DNA of 20,000 nucleotides from positions 57,740-77,739 of the forward strand of contig JALAGF010003564.1 in the NCBI GenBank assembly GCA_030167865.1, read 5' to 3'. The notes below the pieces were generated by a model. It made no database searches. It saw only the letters and a list, made by a program, of their open reading frames with translations, and was not told where the DNA came from. The DNA is from Craspedostauros australis (taxonomy: Eukaryota). Shown here piece by piece: positions 3,453 through 17,623 of this stretch. The translations under genes and the position numbers were made by a program. Position 1 is the first letter of the stretch. The number at the start of each line of letters is the position of its first letter.

Positions 3453-6400
3453 CTACGTCTGCGGGAAGGCTGACAAGATGGCGTTGGCAAGAGACGCAAC
3501 ATCCGCCGGCTCGATGGCGTGCACCATGTAACCTCGATTGCGCGGCGTTGCGCGCAATTGGAATCGCCAAAGCAAACCCCGTTGACGAAAGATGGGCCCC
3601 AACGTCTCCCCCAACCCGCTTGCTCTTGCCTCTTCTTCGTCGCTCAGTCTGACCCAGCCCGTCGCAGCGACGGCATTGTCCTTGTTGCTGTCGTCAACAC
3701 GATTGCCGACACGGTCGATGCCATCCTTGCTACATTCATCGCCGTTGTCGTCAATGTTATGACCATCACCATCAAAACCATCGCCGCCACCAGCAGCAGC
3801 ATCACCGTGCGTGCATCTTGAGCGCAGCTGGTTGGACTGTTGCCACTTCTTCTGATGCTGCAAGCAATGGGATTGCATGACTTTCAGCAGCTTCACCGGC
3901 AACCTCCACCGGTCGATGATCCCGTTCGGACCGCATTCCACCTCCACTTGAACCTGCGATGATGAAGCATCAGAGTCGAAACGGAGACTCGACACGTAAC
4001 CGATTGCCGTGGTCTGGTTGACGCAAGCACGTGCGCCGATCTTGGCTTCCAGCAGGCACGTTGCTCGCCGCATGGATGCCTGGCCGGCTTCAGATGCTGC
4101 CCATGTCCGCAGCATCTGCAGACGCGTGCTGCATTCGGAAGCCTTGGAGAAGCTGGATTTGATGCTGTACGATGCGCATGCGCAGTTTTCATCATCGTCG
4201 CATGCTGACAGATCCAGATCATTGAACGCGACCGCGTCACCCACTGCAACTCGCAACGCCGCGCCATCTGTCCTGATGCGGAGAATCAGCATGGACTCAT
4301 CTGTGATGTACATCGTATCCTGCGTCATTGTGAAGATGACACCGATCGTGTCGACGCACTGCGGATGCCGTCTGGCGAAGTTCCGTTGGTTGCATCGAAT
4401 CGCCCAACGTCTGCACTGGACGTGAACGCGAAGCAGACTTTGGTGAGGGCAACCGTCCTGAACATCACCATCGTCATTTCGTTGCAGATGTTGCAGAAAC
4501 GATTGCTGGTGACACCAATCACGGAGACCGGATGATCGATCAGACGAAGCTCCAAAAGTCGACTTTGACATCGACTTGGGCTTCGATGAGACCATCTCCA
4601 TTCGGGTCCTGCTGTTGGCCGTGAGCTGAATCTTCCCATCGTACTTTGTATCTCGAACTGACAGACCAAGCGCGAGGATGCAATGACCATCTTTCATCCG
4701 CTCCATGTGCTCCTCGGATGGCTTCCATATGGTCAGCAGCGCTCGACCATCTGCCTTGACATCCGTGGTTCCGCAGCCGTGGCTCGTCACTAACACGCGC
4801 ATGAAGGGGGTGCTGCTGCGTTCCAAGCTCGTGTCCACCTCAAGCTCAGCCTCCACCTCCTTCTTGATGCGATCTTGCAGGATGCCGCCGCGCTTGTCCT
4901 TCCATCGATCGACTTCGTGTCGATCCTCATCGGACAGGCCGCTGTAGAAATCTTCGGGACACATGCTGCTGGTGAGCTTGTGCCACACCTCGGGCGCCAT
5001 CTCATCGACGTCTGCCTCCACCTCTTGTTCGATCTGATCCGATATCTTCTCCATCGCACGTTGTCTCCGCTTTTCAAACTCCTGCTGACGTGATTCCTCC
5101 ATCGCCTCGGTCAGGATCATGGGCGCAGACGCGCTGCCCTCCACCTTCTCGAGGTATTGACGCGGGTACACTTTGACGACGCGCAGCGTGATTGCTGGGA
5201 TGTTGCCACCGCCCATGATAATGTCGTTGATCCGCTTGATGCAGAGCTTTCCTTTCGTGGAGCGGTATTGGCGCTGAGAAATGCGAACGAAGCCGAGCTT
5301 TGCATCCCACCTGGCCAATCGGGTCGAGTTGGCGCAGATCATGAGCCCGATGGTACACTTGGGACTGGACGAATCGTAGCCTTCGTCCAGCGGGTCGATG
5401 CCGTCGTCACTGCCAGCCAACACGGCCGATGAGACCAGCAGCTTCGTTCCCACCTGAATGCGACCATCACGGACGTACGTGTTGAGCTTGGTGTCCAACG
5501 ACGCCTGCACACCGTACCAACCATCACTTAGCTCCAACTTGTACTTCATCCTGTCACCTGCCTTGCCATCCATGCCACGAGCTGCAGCAGATGGAGCGAA
5601 ATCCTTGGCGCCTCCTGCCTGTTTGTCGCTGGTGAGCGAGGATGAGCCCACCGCTGGTGATATCGCTGGCGATGAAAACACCTGGCTCACGCACAGGATC
5701 ATCATGCGACTGGCAGCAGCATCGCAGTTCAAGACCTTGCGTAGCGCGGACCGCTTGCCATCTCTGACCTCCTTGCGATATCTCTTCGCGAGTTGCTGAA
5801 CCAGCGTGTCGTACGTGAAGTACCGACCAGCCAGGTGCCTGGAGAATTGGCGCTCCGTCGATGACAGCTTCCACACCACCCACCGTTTGTGCGTGAGTAT
5901 CCACTTATCCGTCATGAGCTTGGACGTGCAGCCCATCCCATGCAGCCGGTGTCGGATATCAGCGAATGTTCCGATGCGCGAGGCAGCGCCGTCGGCTGTG
6001 TCGTCCGCATTCGCGTTCTTGTCCACCGATGCATCGCCGGCATCCGGATCTTCAATGCAGGATGGCAAACCGCTGGTCTTGTCAAACAGCACGTGCATGG
6101 CATTCGTGCTGTTGACTGACAGCGTCACGTTTTGGACACCATGAAGTGACCGTTCTGAGTTTGTGGATGTCATGATGCCATACTTCATGTCACGCTTCAG
6201 TTGGGGCATCGTGCCGAAGGCCTGGTTGCCCTTGTGGGTGAATGATCCGATGATTTTGCCACTCCCACGCCTGCCTTCCCTGTTGTCGACGTCCATTGCG
6301 TCATCGTCGTCGTCATCATCGTCGCCATTGCTGCGATTGGTGTTGATGTAGATGCGATTTGCTGGAGTTGCGACGGCATCACTTTTTGATGCTGCGAATT

Positions 6401-9400
6401 CTTGCGACAGCAATGTGCGTGGCGAACGAGTCGAAATGCCATCACGACCACTTGGTCTTTTGGAGACGATCGCATTGGGCGCAGTTGGTCCAGAACTCGC
6501 GATCGGTGTTTCAGCAGCGCAGCCGGGCGCGCCAATGTCTTGTGACGCACCGTCGAAGCATCTCGCTGGGTGTCTTGGTTCCAACGGAGAAAAACCCGGT
6601 GTTTGCTGTGTCAGCCCTTGGGCAATGCTTCGGATCGCTAGGCCGAGCGTTGCATCATACTCGAAGTGAGGCGTCTCTTGTGCCAAAGGAAGCACGGACG
6701 GAGTTGTGGGCGTCTTGTTTCTACATGTCGATGCTGTTTCCTTCATTGTGTCTGGTTCGCGCCGGACGCTTGGCATGAGTGTTGTGCCTGGAACTGATTT
6801 GGTCTCATCTCCAAACAGCCGAGCAGCTCGCTTCCTCGCTTCCTCGCTGACTTGGATCTTCGTGTTGCGTCCGGCGGTTGCGAAGCCACTGAATGCAGCT
6901 TTGGTCTTGGTTCCGTTGTGGGTTGTGCAAGAAAGGGGGCTTGGTTCTGCCTCCTTGTTCACCGCATGAGTTGACTTGTCTTTCCTTGTACTGTTGTTGA
7001 AGCTCAGGTCGCTAGTCGCACTGCGATGATCGTCACCTTGCCCAACATCCAACAGACCGGACGCCTTGCGGAGGCTGTCTGCGGATACATCGATGCCTCG
7101 GCCCGAACCTGCCAGCACAAAACCTGATTGCACCATGCCCAACGCCGTGCGCTTGTAGGGCGCTGCTGTCGGAGTTGTCATTGATTTGATCGGGATGTCT
7201 TTGGCTGTGACATCATGCTCGGATCGTGCACCCACATCTTGAACATTCTTGCTTTCGTATCTCTTCACATCCTGGTCATTCTCATACGTGAGTAATCGAG
7301 CAGCAGAGGCGTCAGTAGAAACATCGGCAGGTGTCGCCGGCTGCTTTGAGTCGCCAAATGCGCTCGCTGGTTGGTGCTCATTGCTGCGATGTTTGAGTGT
7401 GCCATCGATTTGCGTTGTCGGCTGTTGCGTTCGAACCGTGGTTTCATTCTTTCGCTCAGCCCATGGCGAATAGTCTGTCTTGGAACGCAAGACTGACGCC
7501 AAGGTATCAGATGGCATCGGTGGCCTGTTGTCGATCTGTTTGGGCGGCTCGGATGTCGGGGTGTAACTGAACGAGAATGCTTCTGCCGACGGGTGGGTGC
7601 GAACAGAAGCGGTTGGAGATTGCGCGAGGGGCGGTTTGCTGGTGTAACCGAGACCGTTGGTTTTTTGTGGCTGCGTTCGTTTCGATACGTCGAGGGCTCG
7701 AGAGGGCTGTTCATTGCCTCTTTGTTGCAGTGATGTGGATTCTGCCACGGCAGCCGCTGTAGTACTAGTGCCTGTCGAATGCAGCAGCTGCTTGGCTTTT
7801 CTCAGACTCTCTTCTGATACTGTAATGGCGATCCCTTTGCCTGCAGTTGAGAACATGGCTGTGTGATTGAAACCACCAGGAGTTGTTGCTGGTGTCGTTG
7901 CTGATGGTGCTGTCGTCATCGCTGATGATGCTTTGTTCGTCCCTAATTGCGCTGCTGTTGGCGTGGAAGAGGGAGAGAAAGATAGCGCAGCACCTGGCGT
8001 CTCTGGTCTGGGAGTTGATTTTTGAAACGACGAGGACGAAGACAAGGAGGAAGGAACGAATAATGACTTAGCTGCTAGACCATCGCTGAACAGCTTCTTC
8101 GCTTTCAGCAACGCATCCTTTGAGACATGGATGGCCTTGTTCCTTCCAGCAGTGGTAAACAATGCCGACGTTGGTGTTGCGCGCTGGTCGGCTGCATCTG
8201 AAGTGTTGCGAGCAATGCCACCGTCGATTGTCTGAGCAGTTCGTGGTGTGGGCATGGTAGGAATCACTGCCTTTCCTGCGCTCCTGTTTGTTGCCAGGCT
8301 ATTCCGTGTCGTTGGTGTGGGAGACGATGTTCTTGTTGGTCGAGCTACTGCACCTGCTAATCCTGCTGCCGTGCAGCCACCCAGGAGCGAATGAGCCTTT
8401 GCCATGGCTTCTTTGGAGACGTGTATCGGCTTGCTGCTTCCTGTTGTCGCAAAGAGTGCAGCCGGCGTCGCACTGATGTTTGTTGATGTCGATACAGGGA
8501 CTTGTGGAGGCTTGAATGGAGTTGAGGTTTGATTTCGCGTGCTGTTTGTAGCTGGTGGTTTGGTGTTGGTGTTAGTGTTGGTGGAACCGGGAGCAGCACC
8601 GGGAGCACCTCCCGTTGTTGACGTCAATTTCACAGCAGAACTCTGTGGTGACGGAGGCTTCACGACACCAAGAATCATCTTCGCTTTCATCAAGCTCGCC
8701 TCACTGACTTGGATGGGACGATTGCGTCCAGCCGTCGTGAAAATGGCGCTGGCTGTCGGTAGCGTGCGCGAGGACGATTTCGATTTGGTAGGATCAGGGG
8801 CAACCCGTGGTGTTGGTGCAATCCTCGCAAGCGATGGCTTCGGTCGAGGTGGCGCTCTTGAAAGAGGCTTCGCAGTGCTCCGAGTCCCAGCAACTCCGTT
8901 GGTTGGCGTTAGCGTTGGCGCTGACGACGAAGCAAACATCATCTGGGCCCTCCTGAGGCTTTCCTCCGTGACATGAATGGGGCGATTGTTGCCTGCCGTC
9001 GAAAAGAGTGCGATTCCAGTTTCACGTTCACTTGGAACTGGAGATGTGGCAATGGCTGCAACTGCCTGATCACGTTCACCTCTATTGCTGTTTGCGGATG
9101 GCGACATGACTTTGGAATCTGCTCCAGATGCCAGTAACTGCTTGGCACGTGCCATACCCTCCGCAGAGACGCGGATCGGCTTGTTTTGGCCGGCGGTGGA
9201 GAACATTGCGAGACCGTTGTCTGTTTCTGACGTTTGCAACCGCTGGCCGTCCTGCTTGGCTTTGTTGGCATTGCCATCACCATCCTTGCTTTCTGCTTGG
9301 CCGTCCCCTCTGCGTGCAGTCTCGCGCAGGTGTCCAGCAGCAAGATTGTTGTCTGCGTCGCTGTCACTGTCGTATTGAAACGGTTGATGCTTCGCTCGTT

Positions 9401-12400
9401 TCGCATCCTCTTCGGTGACCATGATGGGCCGTTTGATTCCGGCAAGGCTCACAGCCGGCGTCGTGAATTGGAACTTCTTACTGCCAGGCGAATTAGAGAG
9501 CGTCGCAGATGCACCCATCTTTGGACTAGGACTATGACTCGTACTTGCCGTTTCATCAGAGTTCGTTTTTATGGTTGACGATGGCGTGACTTGGCTCGCC
9601 GTGGCGACACGCAACGATCCATTTGCTTTCGGGGTGTGGAGCTTGCGTCGTGGCACCGTGAAGGATGGTCGCCGCCTGGCCAATGTTGACTTGAGAGTTG
9701 GTGATGCTGCTGCTACTGGTCTCCGTGGATGTGGCTGCCGCAGCAAACCTTTCTGTTTACCAGTGGTTGATTGAAACGAAGGCGAGGATTTACTGCGTGC
9801 TGCAAAGCCATCGTCGTCGCGCTGCGGAGGATGGTCAGCGGCTGTTGCTTGGAACATCTGCTTCGCGCGCTTCATGGCGTCTTCCGACACGGCTATCACT
9901 GACTTGCTTCCCGCCGTGGTGAACATGGCTGCTGAGCTTGCCGCGGTGCTCATTGGTGTTGTTGGCAGCGATGGCGTGGATACGCGCTGAGTGTCTATGC
10001 TTGCTGGTGGACGTGCCAAGTTTAATCCAGTCGGTTTTCGCAGCGTCCGGCGTGCGAGTTGCCCATTCATTCCTCGTCCGCTCAATGGTTGCTTTTGTGG
10101 CGACAATGAGTGTGGCGTTGCTTTGGCTGTAGTAGCGTTGCGTGGAGCTTGGTTTCTTGCTTGATCGGAACCCGTAGTCTTGTTGTTGCCAACTGCAGAC
10201 TTTCCATCAGCGTCATGAATGCTCACCCCTCCCAGGAGGCTCTGCGCCTTCGCAAGGTCCTTGGATGACACAGTGATGGGCGTTTTGCTCCCCGCGCTTG
10301 TGAACATCGTAACGACGGTCTCAGCTGAGTTGGTTTGAGGAGCGCTTTGTTGCGCTGTAGTGGACGCCGCAGTGTTGCTGTTCGTCGCCGTCGTTGACAA
10401 TCTTGGCGTCGACACGGGTGCCATTTTGGCAGACTCGTTTGCATTGCGAGTGTTTGGGACAAGATCTTGCGATTCAGACGCTGCGAACGAATCTGAATCT
10501 TCATAGTCAAAGCATTGATTGATGTCAAGCTTGCGCACGTGATCATCGTGAGCAGTTTGAACGCGGTTGGTGTCATCGTTGTTCGTCTTGCTGTTGGCAT
10601 CGCGGGGCCTATCCGCGCTTTCCTTGTTGTTGGGGACAAGGGCGTGGTGGGAGCCTCGCATCTCTGCAAGGTGCTTGGTCGTATTGCAGCGTTTTGGCGT
10701 GTCAGGTAGACTGCTGCTATCACCACCACCATCACCATCGTAATCAGCAGCGACATTCGCAGCAGCGGCCGTAGACTCGGCATCCATCACCTCACCATCA
10801 TCAGATGGTTCCGAGACGATGATTTGAGAACCCGCCAAAGATCCAGGAACGGAATAGTCGAATGACTCTGCCGTGCTCTGGCTTGCGTTGACGTCCTCCT
10901 CCTGCATTGAATGCTGGTCACCCGCAGCTGCTCCATTCGCATCTTTCTGTTCAGTGGCACCTTCGGGATGTGGAGCGTCGCTCACATCGCGCGCCTGATG
11001 TGCATCATCTGTGGCTGTATTATTCGTTCTATTGCACATGATGGCAGCATCGTTTTGGTGCTGCTCAGGCTGTGGCTGCACCGCGCATTCCGGGACTGTC
11101 GCAACGCTGTTGGTTGCTGCAGCTCGATCCTCACTGCTCATCTTTTGCTTCTTTGGTTCCGCACTTTCCACTGGCGCAGGCCTGATTCCGAGTGGCAACG
11201 CAACCAATGCCTCCAGAGGCTTGTAACGGCGCTTCTTCCCTCTGCTCTTTTTGGACTTGCCAGACGAGGCCGATCCTTGCGTTCCATCTGCTTCCGCCTG
11301 ATCTGTTGGCGACGGTGTCCGGCCGTAGACGATGGACACCATGACGGAACGGAAATGAGGCGCACTCGATTCGGATTGAGTCTGCTGCATTGCTCGCACA
11401 TTTCCCCGTTGCTGCGCCGGTGCCATGGGCGAAGCCGGCGTTGTGGTTGGTGTGATGGTTGCTGCCGACGTTGCCATCGCGATCGTCTCCGGTGCTGCCT
11501 GCGTGCGCATGGGAAGCTCGGAAGATGATGCCGGTTTGTCATCTGTACAAGGAGCATTGCCGTCTGCAGGTACTTCACGAGCGCTGTCGTCGAGACCCAT
11601 CTCACTGGGTTGGTGGTCCTGTTCTCCCATGTCGGTAGCAAGTTTTTCTTGCGCTCGCAATGACGATTGCAGTGACGGCAGCGATTTGACCGCAAATTGG
11701 TTCAATGGTCTCACAGCCTTGATACTGTCGTTGCTGTTGCCGTGGTTCTTGCCGCAGCTGTTGTTGTTGTTGTTGATGGTGGTGGCAGTAGTAGTAGCGA
11801 TGTTGATACCCGATACGTTCGTTTCGAGCACGACAGGACAGCCTCTCTGCTGTTGTGACGGTGGATGTTGGGAATGCTGCGATTCCCGTTTCCGTCGTGC
11901 TTGGCGGCGATGCAACCACTCGTCCACAACCGATGGCTTCCTCTTTTGTCGTGCGTCGTCGCGTGGATGCGATGCCAGCAGCAGTGGCACTGATGGGACA
12001 AACGCTGCCTCCGCTTGCTCGTTCCTTGCGGATTGTGCTTGGTTGCACGCCTCTGTCGATTCTATGTGCAATGGTGCGTTCGCAGCAACGTGGTGGTCTT
12101 GGTCAGAACCTGCCTCCGATCCTGATTGTGTGAGTTGCGTCACTTCTTGTTCCGCTCTTGATCTTCTTCGCTTTCTCTTGCTGTGTGCCGTTGGTGCTGC
12201 TTCCTTCCCCACTCCGCTCTGTTTGTGATTGTGTCCGTCTTCTTGGCTATCCCAGTTGCATGGATCGTGCAGATCGCTTCGAGTTGTGGCAAGATGGACA
12301 TCGCCATCACTGCCGGCGGCATCTTTGATGATTTGTGCACAACTTCGTTTCGATTTGGACGCATTCCCGAGTGGTCTCCGATTCCCGCATGCACCACATC

Positions 12401-12452
12401 GTGGTTTCTTGTCGACATTCCGAAGCGTGCACAATGGGCAATCCCACGTCAT
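3453..12452 (-). CDS. BRCA2: BRCA2 homologue (RAD51 mediator), ~2999 aa, apparently intronless
   Basis: One open frame of >9 kb ending at TAG 3453-3455. It holds 11 BRC-like repeats (FxTAG...I.VS.e.l.kA..ll) and diagnostic DBD motifs: KWILTHKRWVVWKL, RYRKE..GKRSALRKVL, LELSDGWY, ANSTRLARWDAKLGF, GGNIPAITLRVVKVYP, LLTIWKP, VDTIG. The ORF track begins at TTG 12749 and the first ATG is at 12719. ATG 12452 (MTWDC...) is preferred because the upstream in-frame stretch is microsatellite-like. Confidence 0.96.
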   Translation of the reverse strand: MTWDCPLCTLRNVDKKPRCGACGNRRPLGNASKSKRSCAQIIKDAAGSDGDVHLATTRSDLHDPCNWDSQEDGHNHKQSGVGKEAAPTAHSKRKRRRSRAEQEVTQLTQSGSEAGSDQDHHVAANAPLHIESTEACNQAQSARNEQAEAAFVPSVPLLLASHPRDDARQKRKPSVVDEWLHRRQARRKRESQHSQHPPSQQQRGCPVVLETNVSGINIATTTATTINNNNNSCGKNHGNSNDSIKAVRPLNQFAVKSLPSLQSSLRAQEKLATDMGEQDHQPSEMGLDDSAREVPADGNAPCTDDKPASSSELPMRTQAAPETIAMATSAATITPTTTPASPMAPAQQRGNVRAMQQTQSESSAPHFRSVMVSIVYGRTPSPTDQAEADGTQGSASSGKSKKSRGKKRRYKPLEALVALPLGIRPAPVESAEPKKQKMSSEDRAAATNSVATVPECAVQPQPEQHQNDAAIMCNRTNNTATDDAHQARDVSDAPHPEGATEQKDANGAAAGDQHSMQEEDVNASQSTAESFDYSVPGSLAGSQIIVSEPSDDGEVMDAESTAAAANVAADYDGDGGGDSSSLPDTPKRCNTTKHLAEMRGSHHALVPNNKESADRPRDANSKTNNDDTNRVQTAHDDHVRKLDINQCFDYEDSDSFAASESQDLVPNTRNANESAKMAPVSTPRLSTTATNSNTAASTTAQQSAPQTNSAETVVTMFTSAGSKTPITVSSKDLAKAQSLLGGVSIHDADGKSAVGNNKTTGSDQARNQAPRNATTAKATPHSLSPQKQPLSGRGMNGQLARRTLRKPTGLNLARPPASIDTQRVSTPSLPTTPMSTAASSAAMFTTAGSKSVIAVSEDAMKRAKQMFQATAADHPPQRDDDGFAARSKSSPSFQSTTGKQKGLLRQPHPRRPVAAASPTLKSTLARRRPSFTVPRRKLHTPKANGSLRVATASQVTPSSTIKTNSDETASTSHSPSPKMGASATLSNSPGSKKFQFTTPAVSLAGIKRPIMVTEEDAKRAKHQPFQYDSDSDADNNLAAGHLRETARRGDGQAESKDGDGNANKAKQDGQRLQTSETDNGLAMFSTAGQNKPIRVSAEGMARAKQLLASGADSKVMSPSANSNRGERDQAVAAIATSPVPSERETGIALFSTAGNNRPIHVTEESLRRAQMMFASSSAPTLTPTNGVAGTRSTAKPLSRAPPRPKPSLARIAPTPRVAPDPTKSKSSSRTLPTASAIFTTAGRNRPIQVSEASLMKAKMILGVVKPPSPQSSAVKLTSTTGGAPGAAPGSTNTNTNTKPPATNSTRNQTSTPFKPPQVPVSTSTNISATPAALFATTGSSKPIHVSKEAMAKAHSLLGGCTAAGLAGAVARPTRTSSPTPTTRNSLATNRSAGKAVIPTMPTPRTAQTIDGGIARNTSDAADQRATPTSALFTTAGRNKAIHVSKDALLKAKKLFSDGLAAKSLFVPSSLSSSSSFQKSTPRPETPGAALSFSPSSTPTAAQLGTNKASSAMTTAPSATTPATTPGGFNHTAMFSTAGKGIAITVSEESLRKAKQLLHSTGTSTTAAAVAESTSLQQRGNEQPSRALDVSKRTQPQKTNGLGYTSKPPLAQSPTASVRTHPSAEAFSFSYTPTSEPPKQIDNRPPMPSDTLASVLRSKTDYSPWAERKNETTVRTQQPTTQIDGTLKHRSNEHQPASAFGDSKQPATPADVSTDASAARLLTYENDQDVKRYESKNVQDVGARSEHDVTAKDIPIKSMTTPTAAPYKRTALGMVQSGFVLAGSGRGIDVSADSLRKASGLLDVGQGDDHRSATSDLSFNNSTRKDKSTHAVNKEAEPSPLSCTTHNGTKTKAAFSGFATAGRNTKIQVSEEARKRAARLFGDETKSVPGTTLMPSVRREPDTMKETASTCRNKTPTTPSVLPLAQETPHFEYDATLGLAIRSIAQGLTQQTPGFSPLEPRHPARCFDGASQDIGAPGCAAETPIASSGPTAPNAIVSKRPSGRDGISTRSPRTLLSQEFAASKSDAVATPANRIYINTNRSNGDDDDDDDDAMDVDNREGRRGSGKIIGSFTHKGNQAFGTMPQLKRDMKYGIMTSTNSERSLHGVQNVTLSVNSTNAMHVLFDKTSGLPSCIEDPDAGDASVDKNANADDTADGAASRIGTFADIRHRLHGMGCTSKLMTDKWILTHKRWVVWKLSSTERQFSRHLAGRYFTYDTLVQQLAKRYRKEVRDGKRSALRKVLNCDAAASRMMILCVSQVFSSPAISPAVGSSSLTSDKQAGGAKDFAPSAAARGMDGKAGDRMKYKLELSDGWYGVQASLDTKLNTYVRDGRIQVGTKLLVSSAVLAGSDDGIDPLDEGYDSSSPKCTIGLMICANSTRLARWDAKLGFVRISQRQYRSTKGKLCIKRINDIIMGGGNIPAITLRVVKVYPRQYLEKVEGSASAPMILTEAMEESRQQEFEKRRQRAMEKISDQIEQEVEADVDEMAPEVWHKLTSSMCPEDFYSGLSDEDRHEVDRWKDKRGGILQDRIKKEVEAELEVDTSLERSSTPFMRVLVTSHGCGTTDVKADGRALLTIWKPSEEHMERMKDGHCILALGLSVRDTKYDGKIQLTANSRTRMEMVSSKPKSMSKSTFGASSDRSSGLRDWCHQQSFLQHLQRNDDGDVQDGCPHQSLLRVHVQCRRWAIRCNQRNFARRHPQCVDTIGVIFTMTQDTMYITDESMLILRIRTDGAALRVAVGDAVAFNDLDLSACDDDENCACASYSIKSSFSKASECSTRLQMLRTWAASEAGQASMRRATCLLEAKIGARACVNQTTAIGYVSSLRFDSDASSSQVQVEVECGPNGIIDRWRLPVKLLKVMQSHCLQHQKKWQQSNQLRSRCTHGDAAAGGGDGFDGDGHNIDDNGDECSKDGIDRVGNRVDDSNKDNAVAATGWVRLSDEEEARASGLGETLGPIFRQRGLLWRFQLRATPRNRGYMVHAIEPADVASLANAILSAFPQT
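4100..6143 (-). other. BRCA2 DSS1/ssDNA-binding domain: helical domain, OB1, OB2 with tower, OB3 (approximate boundaries)
   Basis: Helical domain (~6143-5790: HGV..VTLSVNSTNA, WVVWKL). OB1 (~5760-5290: MILCVS, LELSDGWY, GTKLLV, NSTRLARW). OB2 plus acidic helical tower (~5210-4590). OB3 (~4355-4100: VDTIGVIF..MYITDES..LRI..AFNDL). Confidence 0.88.
6813..10304 (-). repeat. BRC repeat array (10 canonical + 1 degenerate) within BRCA2
   Basis: 24-aa cores at 10233-10304, 9852-9923, 9132-9203, 8934-9005, 8670-8741, 8382-8453, 8088-8159, 7782-7853, 7050-7121 and 6813-6884, plus a degenerate copy at ~9378-9467. Examples: FTTAGRNKAIHVSKDALLKAKKLF, FSTAGKGIAITVSEESLRKAKQLL. Confidence 0.92.
12387..12446 (-). 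other. RanBP2/NZF-type C4 zinc finger at the BRCA2 N-terminus
   Basis: WDCPLCTLRNVDKKPRCGAC matches W-x-C-x2-C-x3-N-x6-C-x2-C exactly. Confidence 0.9.
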
Positions 12453-12737
12453 TGCTCGTGGTGCCGCTCCTTTTGATCTTGCCGATGTTGTTGTTGGTGA
12501 GACATTCAGCAACGACAAGATGAAAACAACAACAACGATGACGATGACGATGACGATGGTGGCACGGTGTGGTTTGGTATTGATTATTTGACAATGGTCG
12601 ATTGCGGCGATGCCGTTCGCGATGGCGATGGCGGTCATCACGTTTGTGGTGCGGAAGCGTTGTTTGTGTTGTTTGTGCGCAGATGTGTGTTTGGTACTGC
12701 TTGTGTCCTCCCTTGTCATCGAATCGTGGATCACAAT

Positions 12738-12824
12738 TTTGGCGCGCAACCCAAACAGAAGACTAGTGCGTACCTCAATCTACTTTCGTGTGACAGTCTA
12801 CTGCCTGAAGCGAAACGCGCCAAA
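12738..12824. promoter_or_regulatory. Inverted pair of E2F consensus sites (TTTGGCGCG) upstream of BRCA2
   Basis: TTTGGCGCG at 12738-12746 (+) and CGCGCCAAA at 12816-12824 (= TTTGGCGCG on -). Both match the E2F consensus TTTSSCGC and lie just upstream of the CA-rich putative BRCA2 leader. Function is inferred. Confidence 0.55.
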
Positions 12825-13778
12825 CACGAGTTGAACGGATTTTCACGGACTGGATTCGCACGTCAAACTGCCGCGCTTCGTCAGGTGCACTTGCAGATGT
12901 GATGATGAAGTCGTTGTTCGACGCGATTGGCTTTACATTAGCCACACCACAGAGCGAAGCGAAAACGGTGTCAACCACATCTGTGTTGGGGCTTGAATAC
13001 TCGTGCAGTGGAGGAGGTGAATGCTGAGAGCGTGATCGTTGAAACTTGCAGTGTTGATGGACTAAGATTGAGTATAGCGGTCTGGTGGAAGGGGAGTGGT
13101 TCCGGATCCAGAAGGAGGAGGATGTCGCTCTGGACGACGATGAGAAGAGCATTTCATCAAACCACGCTTCTGTTTCTGACTGTTTTGAATCAAACGAAGA
13201 GGTGGATGCTAGTCCTCCAGTCTCTCTACCTGTCATTGGTGTGTCGTTGCTTTTTCCACATCATCCACCACACTGCACGCTTCACATCGCCGCCACCAAC
13301 AAAGCGAGAAAAAAGGAACTCATTTTGAATTGGCGATGAAACGGGGATCGTAACTGTTGGCATGGAGACGTGCGCAGGAATCGCACACGAATCTTGACCG
13401 CCAAACGACAACCCCAAACGGACATCCGATGACCATTAATGTCGGCGGGACTTACAGGGTTTGTATTGCCGCACGTCTGTTGGTTGGAATACTGGTTGGA
13501 CGAGTTCTAACGGCCGTTCGTTGGTACTTACAAGAAATACGGCACGATCGCAACGCTCCCATCGAAAAAAGTGAATGAAAAATTATTCAGAGTTGTACAC
13601 TGTACAATGTTTCAGCGATGTCCGACTGACGACTACAATAATTGCTGCTGTATTTGGATGTCACATAAGATATGTGAAGTTGAAGGTGTCACCATGTGAC
13701 ACCCGTTGAGTGCTTCCGAGCGAAATGATACACATGGAAAAGATAGTTTCACGAAAGCCAAATCGCACCCGAGAAAGG

Positions 13779-13786
13779 GCGCGAAA
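13779..13786 (-). promoter_or_regulatory. Third E2F consensus site (TTTCGCGC)
   Basis: GCGCGAAA on the + strand, in the divergent intergenic region. Confidence 0.35.
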
Positions 13787-14169
13787 ATTCTGTTTGTTGG
13801 TGATGTGTGCTCGAAGAATTCGCGCTGGTTGGAGTATTGACGCCGCTGTAGCACGGTACTGTATCTACGAGGAATGTTGTCCGAGAGTGAGCGTTATCGA
13901 AGGAAGGGCGCGGAAAGACCAAGACCGCCAAAGAAACGGCACCGGCGTTATCAGCGTCGCATGATCCGTTGGTGGTTGTTCTCATCATCCGCACCCGTTT
14001 TGCGTGTCTTTGCGTTTGGATGAGGTCTGCGGTTCTCGTGGTCGGCACCATCTTCCAACCATCGAACAGGTGGAGAGAAGCATCCAAGAGAGAGCGTCGA
14101 TCCATCAATCGATCAAGAGAGCCGTGAGAGCGAGAGAGCGATGGAGTTGATGAGGTCGGAGTGAAGCAA

Positions 14170-15250
14170 TACAGCACATCATCACCATCATCATCATCAT
14201 TCACAAGAGCAACTCCAACAAGAACAGCAACAAGAACGAGATCACTCAACCACACCAACACTCACTCACGGAAACAAAGACAATCGATCTTCCCGATCCA
14301 CCGCAGGAAGGCACACACACACACGGCGCAGCGAAACGTGAACAGCGCAAAATCCCACAGTCCGTAAGACAGTCGCAGAGCCCGAACCGCGGAGCCGTGC
14401 CTGTGATCGATTTCCTCATCGACCAACCAACAACAACAAGCACAACAACAAGCGCAACAGCAACAGCAAACACAATTAGACAAGGTCTCTGTTCAAAATC
14501 GCCGTTGAAGCCACAGTCCGTGCGCCATCTTGAAGACGCAGAGACACAGACAGAGAAGGGAGCACAGAGCAACACAAAGCAACAGAGCACGACACAGAAC
14601 CAAGTCACGCAACAGGGAGCACCTGCATAGAGCGCGCCATACTCTCCACAGCACCCACCAGTATTAAACTCCACGAGAGGTATACTGCATCGCCACGTGT
14701 GCCTCGCTTGCAATTCCACGAGACAGGAGTGGCGAACAAGCACTGAGGAACACATACATCACGTTCACCACATCCACAGCGATCAACACGTCCATCAATC
14801 CCAACGGAGTCCACAACTCAGCACGCGAAGGACGATCCCTCAATCCGTAACTGTTGCAAACGACAACATCGCATTGGAGAGCGAAGGCGGATAGCGGTCA
14901 AGCAACCAAAGTCGACAGACTCACAGCAGCGCAGCAGCTGTTGAAGAGAACCTCACTTCGATTCAGCATCGACTTAGCAACACCTTGTCTGCTATACCAT
15001 TCGACTACACACATATCCACATACACCACCAATACTACGCCATACACACTACTTGCAACATCAGCAGGTCAGACGCAACCAGAACCAAAGACGCCTCCGC
15101 ACAAAAGCCTCAGGGGACGCTGCAACACTCGAACTAGCAGCTGATTGACAAACACAATCAGCCTCATCAGTTCGTATCAGCGCAGATCAGTGCCTACCAA
15201 CACGCACCAACACGCAGAGCACCAACAGACAGAGGCCTGGGTCTCCGGAG
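14170..15250 (+). other. CA-rich, low-complexity stretch upstream of the DUF6824 gene (probable long 5' leader/promoter)
   Basis: Strong A+C skew with (CAT)n, (CAA)n/(CAG)n and (CA)n runs and no credible ORF. A shorter CA-rich tract precedes BRCA2 on the minus strand (~12460-12720). Confidence 0.45.
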
Positions 15251-17623
15251 ATGTCGGTCAACGTTGCAGACAGCCACAGCTATAGCAACGGCAACCGCAA
15301 CTGCAACAGCTACAGTACACCATCGAGGAGCCGCCACCTCAACGCCGAATCGGAAATGGCGTCCGCAGGCAGGGTGGGATCGTCCGGCATCGTCGTCACT
15401 CCGGAGGCCCACGGCAGCCATGACAATCATGGTGGCCATGGCAGCCAGGGATCGACTGACGACAGCAGCACCAGCAGCAGCCTCACCAAGCCCGACATCA
15501 ACGACGTGCTGTGCGGCCGCGGGGGCTCCATCAACAGCCACCCGGGCAACGAGAACTTCCGCCGCCTCGTGGAGAAGAGGAAGAGGGTCTACCTCACGGC
15601 CCGCTTCAAAAGAGAGAAGCGCCTCATCGCCAGCAGCATCGTGCAGGAGATCCGCAACATGAAGCCGCCGGGCCGCTTCCTCTCCAAGAAGAGCGAGAAC
15701 GGCGTGGCCGTGTGGTCCGACATCGGCGACGAGAAGGCCAGGGACAAGACGTCGCAGGCGCTCAGGGAGAACGCGCCCACCATCCGTCTGGAGATCGAGA
15801 CGGAGATCAACGAGCAGCGCGAGGAGATGAAGCGCCACGGCGACGTCTCCACCATGGACCACCGCTACTCGCCCAACCAGATGCCGCCGCCGCACGCCCA
15901 TCACATGGCCCATCCCGGCTCCGCGCCACCGCCCCAGCCCTCGGCCGTTCCATCGCAGCATCACTCCTACTGGGACTACAACTATTACTACAACGCCTAC
16001 TACGGACGCGTGGCGCCTGCCCCAACGCCCGCTCCTGCACCATCACCGCACGCACGTCCGCATGCCCATCCTCATGCTCCTTCGCCGCCGCCACCCTACC
16101 CGCAACAGCACCATCCTCACCACGCGTGGCCGCAGTCGCACTCCCATCCCCATGGCCAGGTTGCGCCGCAGCAGCAGCACCATCACGGCCACCACCAACC
16201 CCCATCGCCCGTGCCTCATCACTACGCAAGCCACGGCCACGGCCAGACTCCTCCCAGCCACCCGCATGGACGCATGGACGCCAGGAAGAGGGGCGCCGAA
16301 GAGTCCAAGACCCCCGACGACGACGACCTAGACTTCCGCTACGCCGCCGAACTCCAGCGGCAGGAGAACATGGACGTCTACAGCAGCAGCCAGCGGAAGA
16401 ACTACGCCCGCCACAAGTCAGGAAGGCCGCACCACCGCCATGGCAACGATGCCAACGGACCCGCGTTCCAACCCCTCAGCGTCGATGACATGACCGCCAC
16501 GGGCACGGCTGCCACGGTAGACACCTCCAACAACTCAAGCATGTCCATGAGGTCCAACAAGCCGCACCGCAGTCAGGAGGAGGAGGACCACCGCCTCGCC
16601 GTCGCCCTGCAGGAACGGGAGGACTCCTTGGCGCGCAACCAGATGGCCGCCTCGGCCGACCGATCGCACCGAACCTCCAGATCCAACGCCTTCTCACAGG
16701 TCAACCGCACCAACCGCGATGCCTTCGCGCGCATGATGCAGAACCAGGCAGAGCAGTACGGCGGCGTCAACGTCGACAAGGAGATGAAGCAGAAGAGGTC
16801 GCAGGCCGTCACCACCAACGACCCCACTGCATCCCTCTTCACGCAGATCGGCAACCAGCTCCTCGGCAACTTTGAGTCATGGGAACCCGGCATGAGCGTC
16901 TGTCCTCTAGACGATGTGCGGGGAACCAACTCGCCCGACCTTCTCCAGCAGCAGCAGGAGCAACCGCATGGCGCGCCGCCGTCTCCCTCGCCTTCCATCG
17001 CAAACACCGCCAGCCACTCCGGCTCGGAGTTGCTCGATGCACGCGAAGTCAGCCCGCAGCAGCGACCGCAGGGCGACTGGCCATCCAGGGTGGGCTCGTG
17101 CCACTCCTGGTTGCCCGACACCGCCAACATCTTCGGCTTCAACAACACGCGCCAACGCAACGCGGCGCTCGCCCCCACACCGCACTTCCAGTCCGTCGGC
17201 ATCTCACCCGTCAACTCCCTCGAGATGGACGTCTCCGCCAACGACAAGTCGCAAGGGTCCGTCGGCGGCGGCTCCCTGTGCCAAGTCTTCGACCCGCCCG
17301 TCGACAAGACCCTCATGCAGATGATGCCGCAGGACGACCTCATGCCACGCTCCCTGCAGCACGTCCCGTCATGGGAACGCAGCATGCGCAGTCTCCGCAG
17401 CCGATCGCCCGTTCTCGGAGCCAACGCCAGCATGGACGAAGAAGAGAAGGTCCACAGCTACCTCCTCAAACCCGCGGCGGCCAACAAACGCGTCTTCGCA
17501 CGACCGCCCGAAGGCACCATCCTGCCACAACCGCGCGACGATTCCAACCTCCTCGACCCGCAAGAGTACGACGACTTTCATCACATGCCACCACCATCGT
17601 CCGATGCCATGGAATGGGAGTAA
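15251..17623 (+). CDS. DUF6824 domain-containing protein (790 aa), putative regulatory/nucleic-acid-binding protein with long low-complexity regions
   Basis: ATG 15251 to TAA 17621-17623, with a strong C/G third-position bias. Residues at 15503-15769 (DVLCGRGGSINSHPGNENFRRLV...KREKRLIASSIV..IR...PPGRFL...W..IGDEKARDKTSQALRE) match the diatom-expanded DUF6824 signature. H/P/Q-rich and S-rich tracts follow. Confidence 0.92.
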   Translation: MSVNVADSHSYSNGNRNCNSYSTPSRSRHLNAESEMASAGRVGSSGIVVTPEAHGSHDNHGGHGSQGSTDDSSTSSSLTKPDINDVLCGRGGSINSHPGNENFRRLVEKRKRVYLTARFKREKRLIASSIVQEIRNMKPPGRFLSKKSENGVAVWSDIGDEKARDKTSQALRENAPTIRLEIETEINEQREEMKRHGDVSTMDHRYSPNQMPPPHAHHMAHPGSAPPPQPSAVPSQHHSYWDYNYYYNAYYGRVAPAPTPAPAPSPHARPHAHPHAPSPPPPYPQQHHPHHAWPQSHSHPHGQVAPQQQHHHGHHQPPSPVPHHYASHGHGQTPPSHPHGRMDARKRGAEESKTPDDDDLDFRYAAELQRQENMDVYSSSQRKNYARHKSGRPHHRHGNDANGPAFQPLSVDDMTATGTAATVDTSNNSSMSMRSNKPHRSQEEEDHRLAVALQEREDSLARNQMAASADRSHRTSRSNAFSQVNRTNRDAFARMMQNQAEQYGGVNVDKEMKQKRSQAVTTNDPTASLFTQIGNQLLGNFESWEPGMSVCPLDDVRGTNSPDLLQQQQEQPHGAPPSPSPSIANTASHSGSELLDAREVSPQQRPQGDWPSRVGSCHSWLPDTANIFGFNNTRQRNAALAPTPHFQSVGISPVNSLEMDVSANDKSQGSVGGGSLCQVFDPPVDKTLMQMMPQDDLMPRSLQHVPSWERSMRSLRSRSPVLGANASMDEEEKVHSYLLKPAAANKRVFARPPEGTILPQPRDDSNLLDPQEYDDFHHMPPPSSDAMEWE

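Follow-up and report, generated by a model that had tools for sequence, protein, structure and literature searches.

A conserved RanBP2-type zinc ribbon at the N-terminus of diatom-type BRCA2 and its putative role in ubiquitin binding

The BRCA2 gene of Craspedostauros australis, which lies within the 20,000-nucleotide stretch of DNA analyzed here (the window), begins with a zinc ribbon of the RanBP2 type; in the diatom-type clade, this part of BRCA2 is ancestral and has been kept by selection. The first 27 residues of the protein are predicted to fold as a single ribbon of the NZF-like subtype, in which four invariant cysteines are the predicted ligands for one zinc ion. BRCA2 recruitment is understood mainly from animals, in which PALB2 and BRCA1 provide the link to ubiquitin signaling; the conserved finger suggests that a different route may bring BRCA2 to damaged DNA. 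Binding of the diatom-type finger to ubiquitin is putative, and its probability, judged from the comparisons below, falls slightly short of even. The features on which the analysis rests are listed in window coordinates.

3453..12452, minus strand: BRCA2 coding sequence, 2999 codons plus stop, frame unbroken (ORF list, translation, and Pfam)
12450..12452, minus strand: probable BRCA2 start codon (Met1), an ATG, from orthologue starts and the low-complexity repeat upstream
12372..12452, minus strand: RanBP2-type (NZF-like) C4 zinc ribbon, Met1-Pro27 (Pfam PF00641, AlphaFold2, Foldseek, and orthologues)
12387-12446, minus strand: finger core, Trp3-Cys22
12423..12428, minus strand: Thr9-Leu10, at the site taken in NZF fingers by the "TF motif" that contacts ubiquitin
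12399..12410, minus strand: basic loop K-K-P-R ahead of the third Cys (family consensus [RK][RK][RK])
11883..11930, minus strand: second conserved N-terminal motif, VVDEWLHRRQARRKRE, residues 175-190 (regex)
6825..9923, minus strand: BRC (RAD51-binding) repeat array (Pfam PF00634, seven stretches, 4e-37)
5766-6164, minus strand: BRCA2 helical domain (Pfam PF09169, 4e-11, above cut-off)
5286-5750, minus strand: OB1 (Pfam PF09103, 4e-31, above cut-off)
4602-4745, minus strand: OB2, a weak match (Pfam PF21318, 0.076; 13 bits, with the cut-off at 27)

The open reading frame around the BRCA2 ATG comprises 3098 codons (3453..12749, minus strand). The DNA-binding part of its product retrieved 1632 relatives at E≤1e-3, and BRCA2 proteins named as such in diatoms, animals, and fungi are among those it retrieves. 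At least nine BRC repeats fit a strict regex, and two more degenerate copies lie upstream of them. The tower and OB3 gave no Pfam match in the translation; the diatom BRCA2 matches likewise show just PF09169, PF09103, and PF00634. Conservation nonetheless extends over the C-terminal 600 residues, with 51% identity to the relative P0002. Used as a query, the N-terminal 400 residues matched none of 5450 candidates (1649-5249 aa) at E≤0.001, as the sequence outside the finger has diverged too far. Within this region, VVDEWLHRRQARRKRE follows the family form V-x-x-W-[LI]-x-x-R-[KR]n, which a regex locates C-terminal to the finger in 20 of 50 clade members and which is probably a nuclear localization or partner motif.

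The ATG at 12452 is preceded by an open frame of 99 codons that holds two further in-frame ATGs; its sequence is a repeat of the (GTCATC)n type, which if translated would give a hydrophobic run of IVIVIVIVVVVF. The N-termini of orthologues searched by tblastn over 12453-14800 returned noise (best E 0.01), a result by which a candidate upstream exon was ruled out. In 20 of 33 orthologue models, the first Cys of the finger falls within the first 30 residues. Since the upstream repeat has no orthologue match and most orthologue models start just before the finger, ATG 12452 is the likely start of BRCA2 translation.

Read as the reverse complement of 12452..12372, the gene opens with ATG ACG TGG GAT TGC CCA TTG TGC ACG CTT CGG AAT and encodes MTWDCPLCTLRNVDKKPRCGACGNRRP, in which the Trp, four Cys, and Asn of the fold, spaced as W-x-C-x2-C-x3-N-x6-C-x2-C, are accompanied by Thr-Leu after the second Cys and by Ala inside the second CXXC (C-G-A-C). 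Pfam Zn_ribbon_RanBP (PF00641, gathering cut-off 27 bits) matches the isolated finger with 28.1 bits (E 1.2e-6) in a 51-aa piece and 30.1 bits in a 33-aa piece, while the same match within the 3098-residue translation, at 21.8 bits, lies under the cut-off. Together with the BRC, helical, and OB1 matches, these scores bear out an earlier sequence-only reading, which had placed an NZF-type zinc finger at the start of BRCA2, had proposed a Pfam zf-RanBP scan, and had given the range 12387-12452, a minus-strand segment that spans exactly Met1 to the fourth Cys. AlphaFold2 models residues 1-30 with a pLDDT of 87-95. The modeled finger overlays on Nup153 ZnF3 at 0.3 Å and on TRABID NZF1 at 0.7 Å over 26-27 residues, with target-normalized TM values of up to 0.97 for the fingers of Nup153, RanBP2, and TRABID; Foldseek against the PDB recovered the fold but gave no match at E≤0.001, owing to the very small size of the domain. 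In the ESM Atlas, the best score of 0.79 was under the meaningful level, and only generic RanBP-finger clusters were returned.

A finger is carried near the N-terminus by 33 other BRCA2 orthologues, so that the survey proposed by the sequence-only reading reveals a fusion conserved across the diatom-type clade. Among the 150 best relatives of the DNA-binding domain, 28 carry it, as do 5 of 8 further diatom-like matches and none of 45 more distant matches, which include animals, fungi, and Tribonema. All finger-bearing orthologues fall in one clade (SH-aLRT 99; 50 of 67 tree rows), which includes Nitzschia inconspicua, Cylindrotheca closterium, and C. fusiformis. These 33 proteins were independently predicted and are less than 50% identical in their DNA-binding domains; PF00641 matches all 33 aligned fingers, the four Cys are invariant in every one of them, and the family signature reads W-x-C-x2-C-T-L-x-N-P-x2-[RK]3-C-x-A-C-x2-R-R-P. 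Four further clade gene models begin inside the finger, and 12 of the 50 clade members have models without it, some of which may be true losses. Annotation pipelines thus miss the finger in several public gene models, which begin within it or downstream of it.

Residue counts were made over 35 family fingers, P0132 contributing more than one. The first position after the second Cys is Thr in 34 of the 35, and the second is Leu in 31, Phe in 2, and Tyr in 2. Inside the second CXXC, Ala occurs in 24 fingers, Val in 6, Ile in 2, Met in 2, and Thr in 1. Of the 31 standard-length fingers, 30-31 have R or K at each of the two positions preceding the third Cys. The Ran-type L-V dipeptide is found in 0 of 35. 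The tri-basic loop and the basic tail R-R-P are the most family-specific features; none of the calpain-15, UBA-protein, and nucleoporin fingers that were compared has such a basic cluster.

In the NZF finger of Npl4, the residues of the ubiquitin-contacting motif are T13, F14, and M25. As given in PMC11372445, the definition of an NZF calls for Thr-(Phe/Tyr) and, within the second CXXC, a hydrophobic residue, so that the wording of the sequence-only reading, in which "T-F/hydrophobic" was extended to the Thr-Leu of this finger, overstretches the rule. The window finger has Thr-Leu, outside the published Thr-(Phe/Tyr), and its Ala in the second CXXC is the same residue as in Ran-binding fingers. 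Thr-(Phe/Tyr) is present in 4 of the 35 family fingers (P0155, P0158, P0159, and the first finger of P0132), and three orthologues carry the full NZF triad, as TF/M, TY/M, and TY/I. These three correspond to separate changes on the tree; a tree uniting them was rejected (AU p 7.6e-5), for a group that was chosen after the tree had been seen. Met at the third motif position accompanies Phe or Tyr in two of four fingers and Leu in none of 31. Ubiquitin reading is plausible because the orthologues repeatedly adopt the TF/M or TY/M triad, although a general hydrophobic contact with another partner could explain the Leu to Phe/Tyr switches equally well. The proposal by the sequence-only reading that this BRCA2 may read ubiquitin directly is thus partly supported: the motifs of the orthologous fingers speak for it, whereas the window finger itself speaks against it, being T-L/A, of the calpain-15 type, and nearest among solved structures, by single-sequence search, to Ran-binding fingers.

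A profile built from the BRCA2 fingers scores NZF fingers at 27-35 bits overall (TRABID 35, YAF2 34, RYBP 33, TAB2 31, and HOIL-1L 31). The RNA-binding fingers of ZRANB2, RBM10, and RBM5 reach 19.6, 18.1, and 17.4 bits, respectively, in agreement with the earlier suggestion that the finger is unlike the ZRANB2 type, given that ubiquitin-binding and Ran-binding fingers both score about 30-35 bits. Neither the profile search nor Foldseek separated Ran-binders from ubiquitin-binders. In favor of a ubiquitin link, T-L/A fingers adjoin TF/M fingers and also occur in proteins of the ubiquitin system or of repair (UBA, E2, RING, WLM, and ERCC4).

The NZFs of NPL4, TAB2/3, TRABID, HOIL-1L, Sharpin, HOIP, RYBP/YAF2, and ZRANB3 share with the BRCA2 finger the ribbon of about 30 residues, its Trp, four Cys, and Asn, as well as the Thr at the first motif position. 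The BRCA2 family differs from them in having mostly Leu at the second position (31 of 35) and mostly Ala in place of Met/Ile, which leaves it outside the published definition, and in its specific tri-basic loop. ZF3-ZF5 of calpain-15 (SOL calpain; P0205 and P0206) have the identical T-L / x-A-C signature and are among the top matches of the BRCA2-finger profile, but they belong to a protease with a five-finger array that includes two TF-type NZFs, and they are without the tri-basic loop. In the experiments described in PMC12805371, the T-L/A fingers ZF4 and ZF5 are dispensable for ubiquitin-chain binding, and the binding of ZF3 is "faint" relative to ZF1, as is that of the TF-type ZF2. In two papers, ZF3-5 are classed as RanBP2-type rather than NZF.

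In the Ran-GDP-binding fingers of Nup153 and RanBP2/Nup358, the Leu-Val (hydrophobic-Val) dipeptide after the second Cys is the Ran contact. These are the nearest solved fingers by single-sequence search (RanBP2 2.7e-12, summed over 8 fingers; Nup153 1.6e-6) and the best fold matches (rmsd 0.3-0.5 Å), and they share with the BRCA2 finger the Ala in the second CXXC. They differ from the BRCA2 family in having L-V (also C-V, S-L, and L-L) in place of T-L and in forming tandem arrays in nucleoporins.

RYBP and YAF2 have a basic tail that touches the nucleosome. Both carry one NZF-fold finger at the N-terminus with conserved basic residues after it, as in the BRCA2 family, and their structures on H2AK119-ubiquitylated nucleosomes (PDB 8pp6, 9dby, and 9dde) provide a precedent for a finger reading ubiquitin on chromatin; the differences lie in their TF-type motif and their Polycomb context. 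PMC11372445 counts RYBP and YAF2 among 15 human NZFs and describes extra conservation between or after the CXXC pairs of human NZFs as marking secondary binding surfaces. In vertebrate BRCA2, the PALB2-binding motif occupies the same place, at the very start of the protein and before the BRC repeats, with a presumed role in recruitment. The vertebrate matches begin ...FFEIFK...LGPISLNWFEEL and lack the finger. Conversely, a regex for the PALB2 motif, W-[FLIM]-[EDQ]-[EDQ]-[LIVM] (the vertebrate W-F-E-E-L type), found no match in the window BRCA2, in line with the contrast to vertebrate BRCA2 drawn previously. The finger of the repair enzyme NEIL3 is itself of the T-L type. Single NZFs bring NEIL3 to ubiquitylated CMG (PMC9561275) and ZRANB3 to polyubiquitylated PCNA (PMC10097976), which are precedents for NZF recruitment in repair, albeit in enzymes that differ from BRCA2. 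For Leishmania BRCA2, a putative zf-RanBP domain is reported at a permissive Pfam E-value (PMC3413117); Leishmania is a kinetoplastid, diatoms are stramenopiles, and its BRCA2 was not among the matches obtained here.

Several other readings of the finger have to be weighed against ubiquitin binding. The Thr-Leu/Ala face may bind a non-ubiquitin protein partner, e.g., Ran-GDP or a diatom-specific repair or import factor, in which case the NZF likeness would reflect shared ancestry only. RanBP2 and Nup153 supply the best single-sequence and fold matches as well as the common x-A-C, and Leu at the second motif position occurs in the S-L finger 1 of RanBP2 and in an L-L finger of Nup153; however, Thr holds the first position in 34 of 35 family fingers where Ran-binders have L, C, or S, and the three independent shifts to the canonical ubiquitin triad also argue against such a partner. 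Ran-GDP is not known to have a role at the BRCA2 N-terminus. The poor ubiquitin-chain binding of the calpain-15 T-L fingers (PMC12805371) is consistent with a partner of this kind, as is the TF-less ZnF of HOIP, described as non-ubiquitin-binding with NEMO/OPTN proposed instead (PMC11372445); on balance, this reading appears rather unlikely. The [RK]3 loop and R-R-P tail could instead make the finger an additional N-terminal contact for DNA, RNA, or poly(ADP-ribose), since they are family-specific and absent from the ubiquitin- and Ran-binding fingers compared. In ZRANB2-type fingers, the conserved Asn is followed by an aromatic residue that stacks on a base; in the BRCA2 family, Pro or Val stands there. 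Some RanBP2-type fingers (ZRANB2, RBM5/10, and FUS) do bind single-stranded RNA, as their PDB titles indicate, but the RNA-binding fingers score lowest with the family profile (17-20 bits), and charge-based binding leaves the strict conservation of Thr-Leu unexplained, so that nucleic-acid or poly(ADP-ribose) binding is considered quite unlikely.

It is improbable that the basic residues serve chiefly as a nuclear localization signal or that the finger is a structural cap without a specific ligand. BRCA2 must enter the nucleus, and the KRRC and RRP clusters look like monopartite import signals; nevertheless, a better candidate signal, W-L-x-R-R-x-x-R-R-K-R, lies 150 residues downstream and is conserved in 20 of 50 clade members, and an import signal has no need of the invariant Trp, Asn, Thr-Leu, and four Cys. 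The clade models that lack the finger (12 of 50) or begin inside it (4) could also mean that it is excluded from the mature protein by a downstream transcription or translation start or by splicing. Such an exclusion is very improbable, as the frame runs continuously from the finger through the BRC repeats to the OB folds, and the finger is under strong constraint in 33 orthologues whose DNA-binding domains are less than 50% identical.

To return to ubiquitin binding, we propose tentatively, and with the considerations for and against it close to balanced, that the finger is a recruitment module of diatom-type BRCA2. In the proposed mechanism, the Thr-Leu/Ala patch would dock on the hydrophobic Ile44 patch of ubiquitin, or of a ubiquitin-like fold, that is carried by a protein of chromatin or the replisome where DNA is damaged. 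A second surface, formed by [RK]3 before the third Cys and R-R-P after the fourth, would touch DNA or an acidic surface of the target, by which a weak affinity for ubiquitin would be made target-specific. The RAD51 loader, with its BRC repeats and OB folds, would in this way be brought to lesions in organisms for which a survey of six diatoms reported BRCA2 and found no BRCA1 (PMC4647503). By analogy with RYBP, the finger may even be a direct two-surface reader of ubiquitylated chromatin or replisome proteins that would replace the BRCA1-PALB2 bridge by which animals recruit BRCA2, a stronger version that we regard as somewhat doubtful.

A finger of ubiquitin-reader fold at the N-terminus is a concrete candidate for the recruitment route of diatom BRCA2 and, if the proposal is true, would illustrate how domain fusion can shorten a pathway. 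Moreover, a single orthologous finger provides a natural series, T-L/A, T-L/V, T-Y/I, and T-F/M, in which it can be followed how far the NZF rule relaxes, and this series bears on the many T-L fingers that are now labeled as non-ubiquitin-binding.

The 3098-codon open frame is BRCA2, as the sequence-only reading had named it: Pfam recovers BRC repeats (E 4e-37, 7 stretches; 9 by strict pattern in the window protein), the helical domain (E 4e-11) and OB1 (E 4e-31), with a weak, sub-threshold match to OB2, and the translated frame is unbroken from the finger through to the stop codon. The finger itself, 12452..12372 of the window sequence on the minus strand, reads MTWDCPLCTLRNVDKKPRCGACGNRRP as reverse complement. 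No Pfam match to the tower or OB3 was obtained in the window BRCA2. P0002, a 613-residue relative, aligns to its last 600 residues with 51% identity, which, alongside the missing tower and OB3 matches, indicates a diatom C-terminal DNA-binding region that is conserved yet diverged from animal models. The features of the gene are as follows.

3453..12749, minus strand: BRCA2 open frame of 3098 codons, holding the ATG at 12452
3456-5285, minus strand: C-terminal third of BRCA2, with OB2 sub-threshold and tower/OB3 unmatched by Pfam
11883-11930, minus strand: second conserved N-terminal motif, residues 175-190, here VVDEWLHRRQARRKRE
12453-12749, minus strand: upstream open stretch, 99 codons in the BRCA2 frame with two further in-frame ATGs

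The neighbouring 790-codon ORF at 15251-17623 (plus strand), within the window's most GC-rich stretch (0.61-0.66), carries DUF6824 (E 1.7e-30), a diatom-typical domain; taken with the named finger-bearers given below, it points to a diatom.

The N-terminal finger is real. As an isolated piece, it exceeds the Pfam Zn_ribbon_RanBP cut-off of 27 bits in two runs (28.1 bits, E 1.2e-6, and 30.1 bits); embedded in the complete translated protein, it reaches 21.8 bits, under that cut-off. AlphaFold2 with the family alignment yields pLDDT values of 95, 94 and 87 for residue blocks 1-3 (ten residues each), and Foldseek places the model 0.3 A from Nup153 ZnF3 across 27 columns and 0.7 A from TRABID NZF1, with no match at E<=0.001 for so small a domain. 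The range 12387-12452, proposed from sequence alone, covers, on the minus strand, Met1 through the fourth Cys. Translation probably begins at the ATG at 12452, because the upstream stretch is a GTCATC/GTT-type microsatellite-like repeat (about 12515-12565) whose translation would give a hydrophobic IVIVIVIVVVVF run, odd in a nuclear repair protein, because orthologue N-termini find no match in 12453-14800 (tblastn best E 0.01), and because the first Cys lies at residues 2-30 in 20 of 33 orthologue models. Probably, 12453-12749 is 5' UTR, into which a gene caller could extend the protein; the finger stays within the protein even with an upstream start, and its not being expressed is highly improbable.

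The same fusion recurs among BRCA2 relatives. With the C-terminal 949 residues of BRCA2 as query, a full HMMER scan returned 1632 relatives at E<=1e-3; within the best 150 of these, a complete finger (C-x2-C-x8-14-C-x2-C ahead of the DNA-binding domain) is present in 28, and in 23 of the 51 with at least 1400 residues. A second, named search (61 proteins, 1649-5249 residues) found it in five of eight new diatom-like matches and in none of the 45 remaining proteins, which include named animals, fungi, Tribonema minus, Rhodelphis and other rows. The named bearers comprise Nitzschia inconspicua, Cylindrotheca closterium and C. fusiformis, and automatic annotation already picks up the diatom fusion: UniRef calls the protein from C. 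closterium a 'RanBP2-type domain-containing protein'. Four gene models (P0004, P0005, P0047 and P0048) start inside the finger; together with P0152, they form a set of close-orthologue models beginning inside or just after it, and one public model begins at its Cys-Thr-Leu. The fusion is thus under-reported by automatic annotation, and a model that looks 'fingerless' is poor evidence of loss. Finger number varies within the family, since the orthologue P0132 carries two (TF/V at residue 2 and TL/A at residue 221, denoting the two residues after Cys2 and the middle residue of the second CXXC) and P0213 (992 residues) has two near-identical TL/A fingers with the basic loop.

A tree of the helical+OB1 region, built by a quick method from 67 rows (34 finger-bearers including the window, 4 partial models, 7 named outgroups, and fingerless models in which 900 or more residues precede the domain, with 137 other fetched proteins omitted), unites all finger-bearers in one 50-row clade (SH-aLRT 99) that includes 12 fingerless models; none of the 17 rows outside it bears a finger. 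Several fingerless models are sisters of finger-bearers, which truncation of the gene models would explain as readily as loss.

Across 35 fingers from 34 proteins, P0132 contributing two, the family signature is W-x-C-x2-C-T-L-x-N-P-x2-[RK]3-C-x-A-C-x2-R-R-P. The first position after Cys2 is Thr in 34 and Ser in 1, the second is Leu in 31, Phe in 2 and Tyr in 2, and the middle of the second CXXC is Ala in 24, Val in 6, Ile in 2, Met in 2 and Thr in 1; Met occupies this third position in 2 of the 4 Phe/Tyr fingers and in none of the 31 Leu fingers. Two features are specific to the BRCA2 family, a tri-basic loop ahead of Cys3 and the R-R-P tail; the nucleoporin, calpain-15 and UBA-protein fingers compared lack both. 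The second motif, V-x-x-W-[LI]-x-x-R-[KR]n, lies 20-200 residues past the finger in 20 of the 50 clade members; it resembles a nuclear localisation signal joined to a short amphipathic W-L motif and could be a partner-binding site akin to the vertebrate PALB2 motif. Vertebrate BRCA2 matches begin with an ...LNWFEEL motif, whereas the window BRCA2 has no such match, and the pattern W-[FLIM]-[EDQ]-[EDQ]-[LIVM] is not matched in the window protein.

Of the proposal that BRCA2 opens with an NZF-type finger, the RanBP2-type ribbon stands by Pfam and by fold, but the NZF assignment is not supported as worded. As described in PMC11372445, the ubiquitin-binding NZF subgroup requires Thr-(Phe/Tyr), usually with a hydrophobic residue in the second CXXC, and these residues jointly contact the Ile44 patch of ubiquitin; the window finger, T-L with Ala, fails this definition. 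When solved structures are searched with the single sequence, the Ran-GDP-binding fingers of RanBP2 and Nup153 come out on top, which favours another protein partner, Ran included. Those fingers share x-A-C with the window finger but carry L-V (also C-V, S-L and L-L), whereas the BRCA2 family has a near-invariant Thr within T-L and the Ran-type L-V in 0 of 35, and such a partner is somewhat unlikely. The family profile does not separate the ubiquitin-binding from the Ran-binding classes (TRABID 35, YAF2 34, RYBP 33, Nup153 32, RanBP2 31, TAB2 31, HOIL-1L 31 and NPL4 27 bits); it does set apart the RNA-binding fingers (ZRANB2 20, RBM10 18 and RBM5 17 bits), which bears out the contrast with ZRANB2-type fingers drawn earlier. 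Binding to nucleic acid or PAR is unlikely. A role solely as import signal or structural element is less likely still.

Calpain-15, retrieved by the profile, combines both finger types: fingers 1-2 are TF/I and TF/V-or-M, while fingers 3-5 are T-L/A like the window finger. In two papers on this protein (one being PMC12805371), ZF3-5 are classed as RanBP2-type, not NZF; PMC12805371 describes ZF4 and ZF5 as dispensable for ubiquitin-chain pull-down, and ZF3 and the TF-type ZF2 as 'faint' beside ZF1. The full canonical triad is found in three BRCA2 orthologues (P0155 TF/M, P0158 TY/M and P0159 TY/I), which sit in separate, well-supported regions of the tree, each beside T-L relatives, and so imply three changes; a tree uniting them, a group chosen after the tree was seen, is rejected (lnL 97.5 lower, AU p 7.6e-5). 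Repeated arrival at this triad is expected of a T-L/A face that touches the same hydrophobic patch; the switches could equally reflect some generic hydrophobic contact made with another partner. T-L/A fingers co-occur with TF fingers and with domains of the ubiquitin system or of repair (UBA, E2, RING, WLM protease and ERCC4 nuclease), which weakly supports a ubiquitin link, as does, also weakly, the T-V/V finger of fish HOIP. Two fish HOIP/RNF31 proteins (P0236 and P0242) have TT/T, TV/V and TY/M fingers, with the aliphatic TV/V at the NZF1 position, whose human motif is given as TF. In four protist or metagenome proteins (P0219, P0221, P0238 and P0240), the same finger types are joined to further domains of DNA repair or chromatin: a WGR-domain DNA ligase has three TF fingers, an ERCC4 nuclease has TH/M, TL/I, TL/A and TF/G, a WLM protease has TF/L and TL/A, and a PWWP protein has two of the TL type. 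These combinations suggest that repair outside animals makes broader use of such fingers.

A meiotic-toolkit survey was the sole relevant literature found for BRCA2 and diatom homologous recombination, and no published discussion of a RanBP2-type/NZF finger in diatom BRCA2 was found in a literature set short of most subscription journals; among the titles and abstracts listed for BRCA2 together with NZF, none deals with a finger in BRCA2 itself. In PMC4647503, a survey of six diatom species, BRCA2 was present and BRCA1 not found; PMC3413117 reports a 'putative zf-RanBP' at a permissive Pfam threshold in Leishmania infantum BRCA2, called unique to Leishmania. The gene combines known kinds, a BRCA2 to which an NZF-like finger, of the T-L subtype, has been added. 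For a finger of established fold, position, conservation and motif states, ubiquitin binding is a tentative reading that could well prove wrong. There are precedents for such recruitment: single NZFs are described as bringing the repair enzymes NEIL3 to ubiquitylated CMG (PMC9561275) and ZRANB3 to polyubiquitylated PCNA (PMC10097976). The family-specific basic loop and tail may form a second contact, to DNA or an acidic surface, which fits the report in PMC11372445 that, in human NZFs, secondary binding sites are marked by extra conservation between and after the CXXC pairs. On the ubiquitin reading, the finger would dock BRCA2, at stalled forks or damaged chromatin, onto a target that carries ubiquitin.
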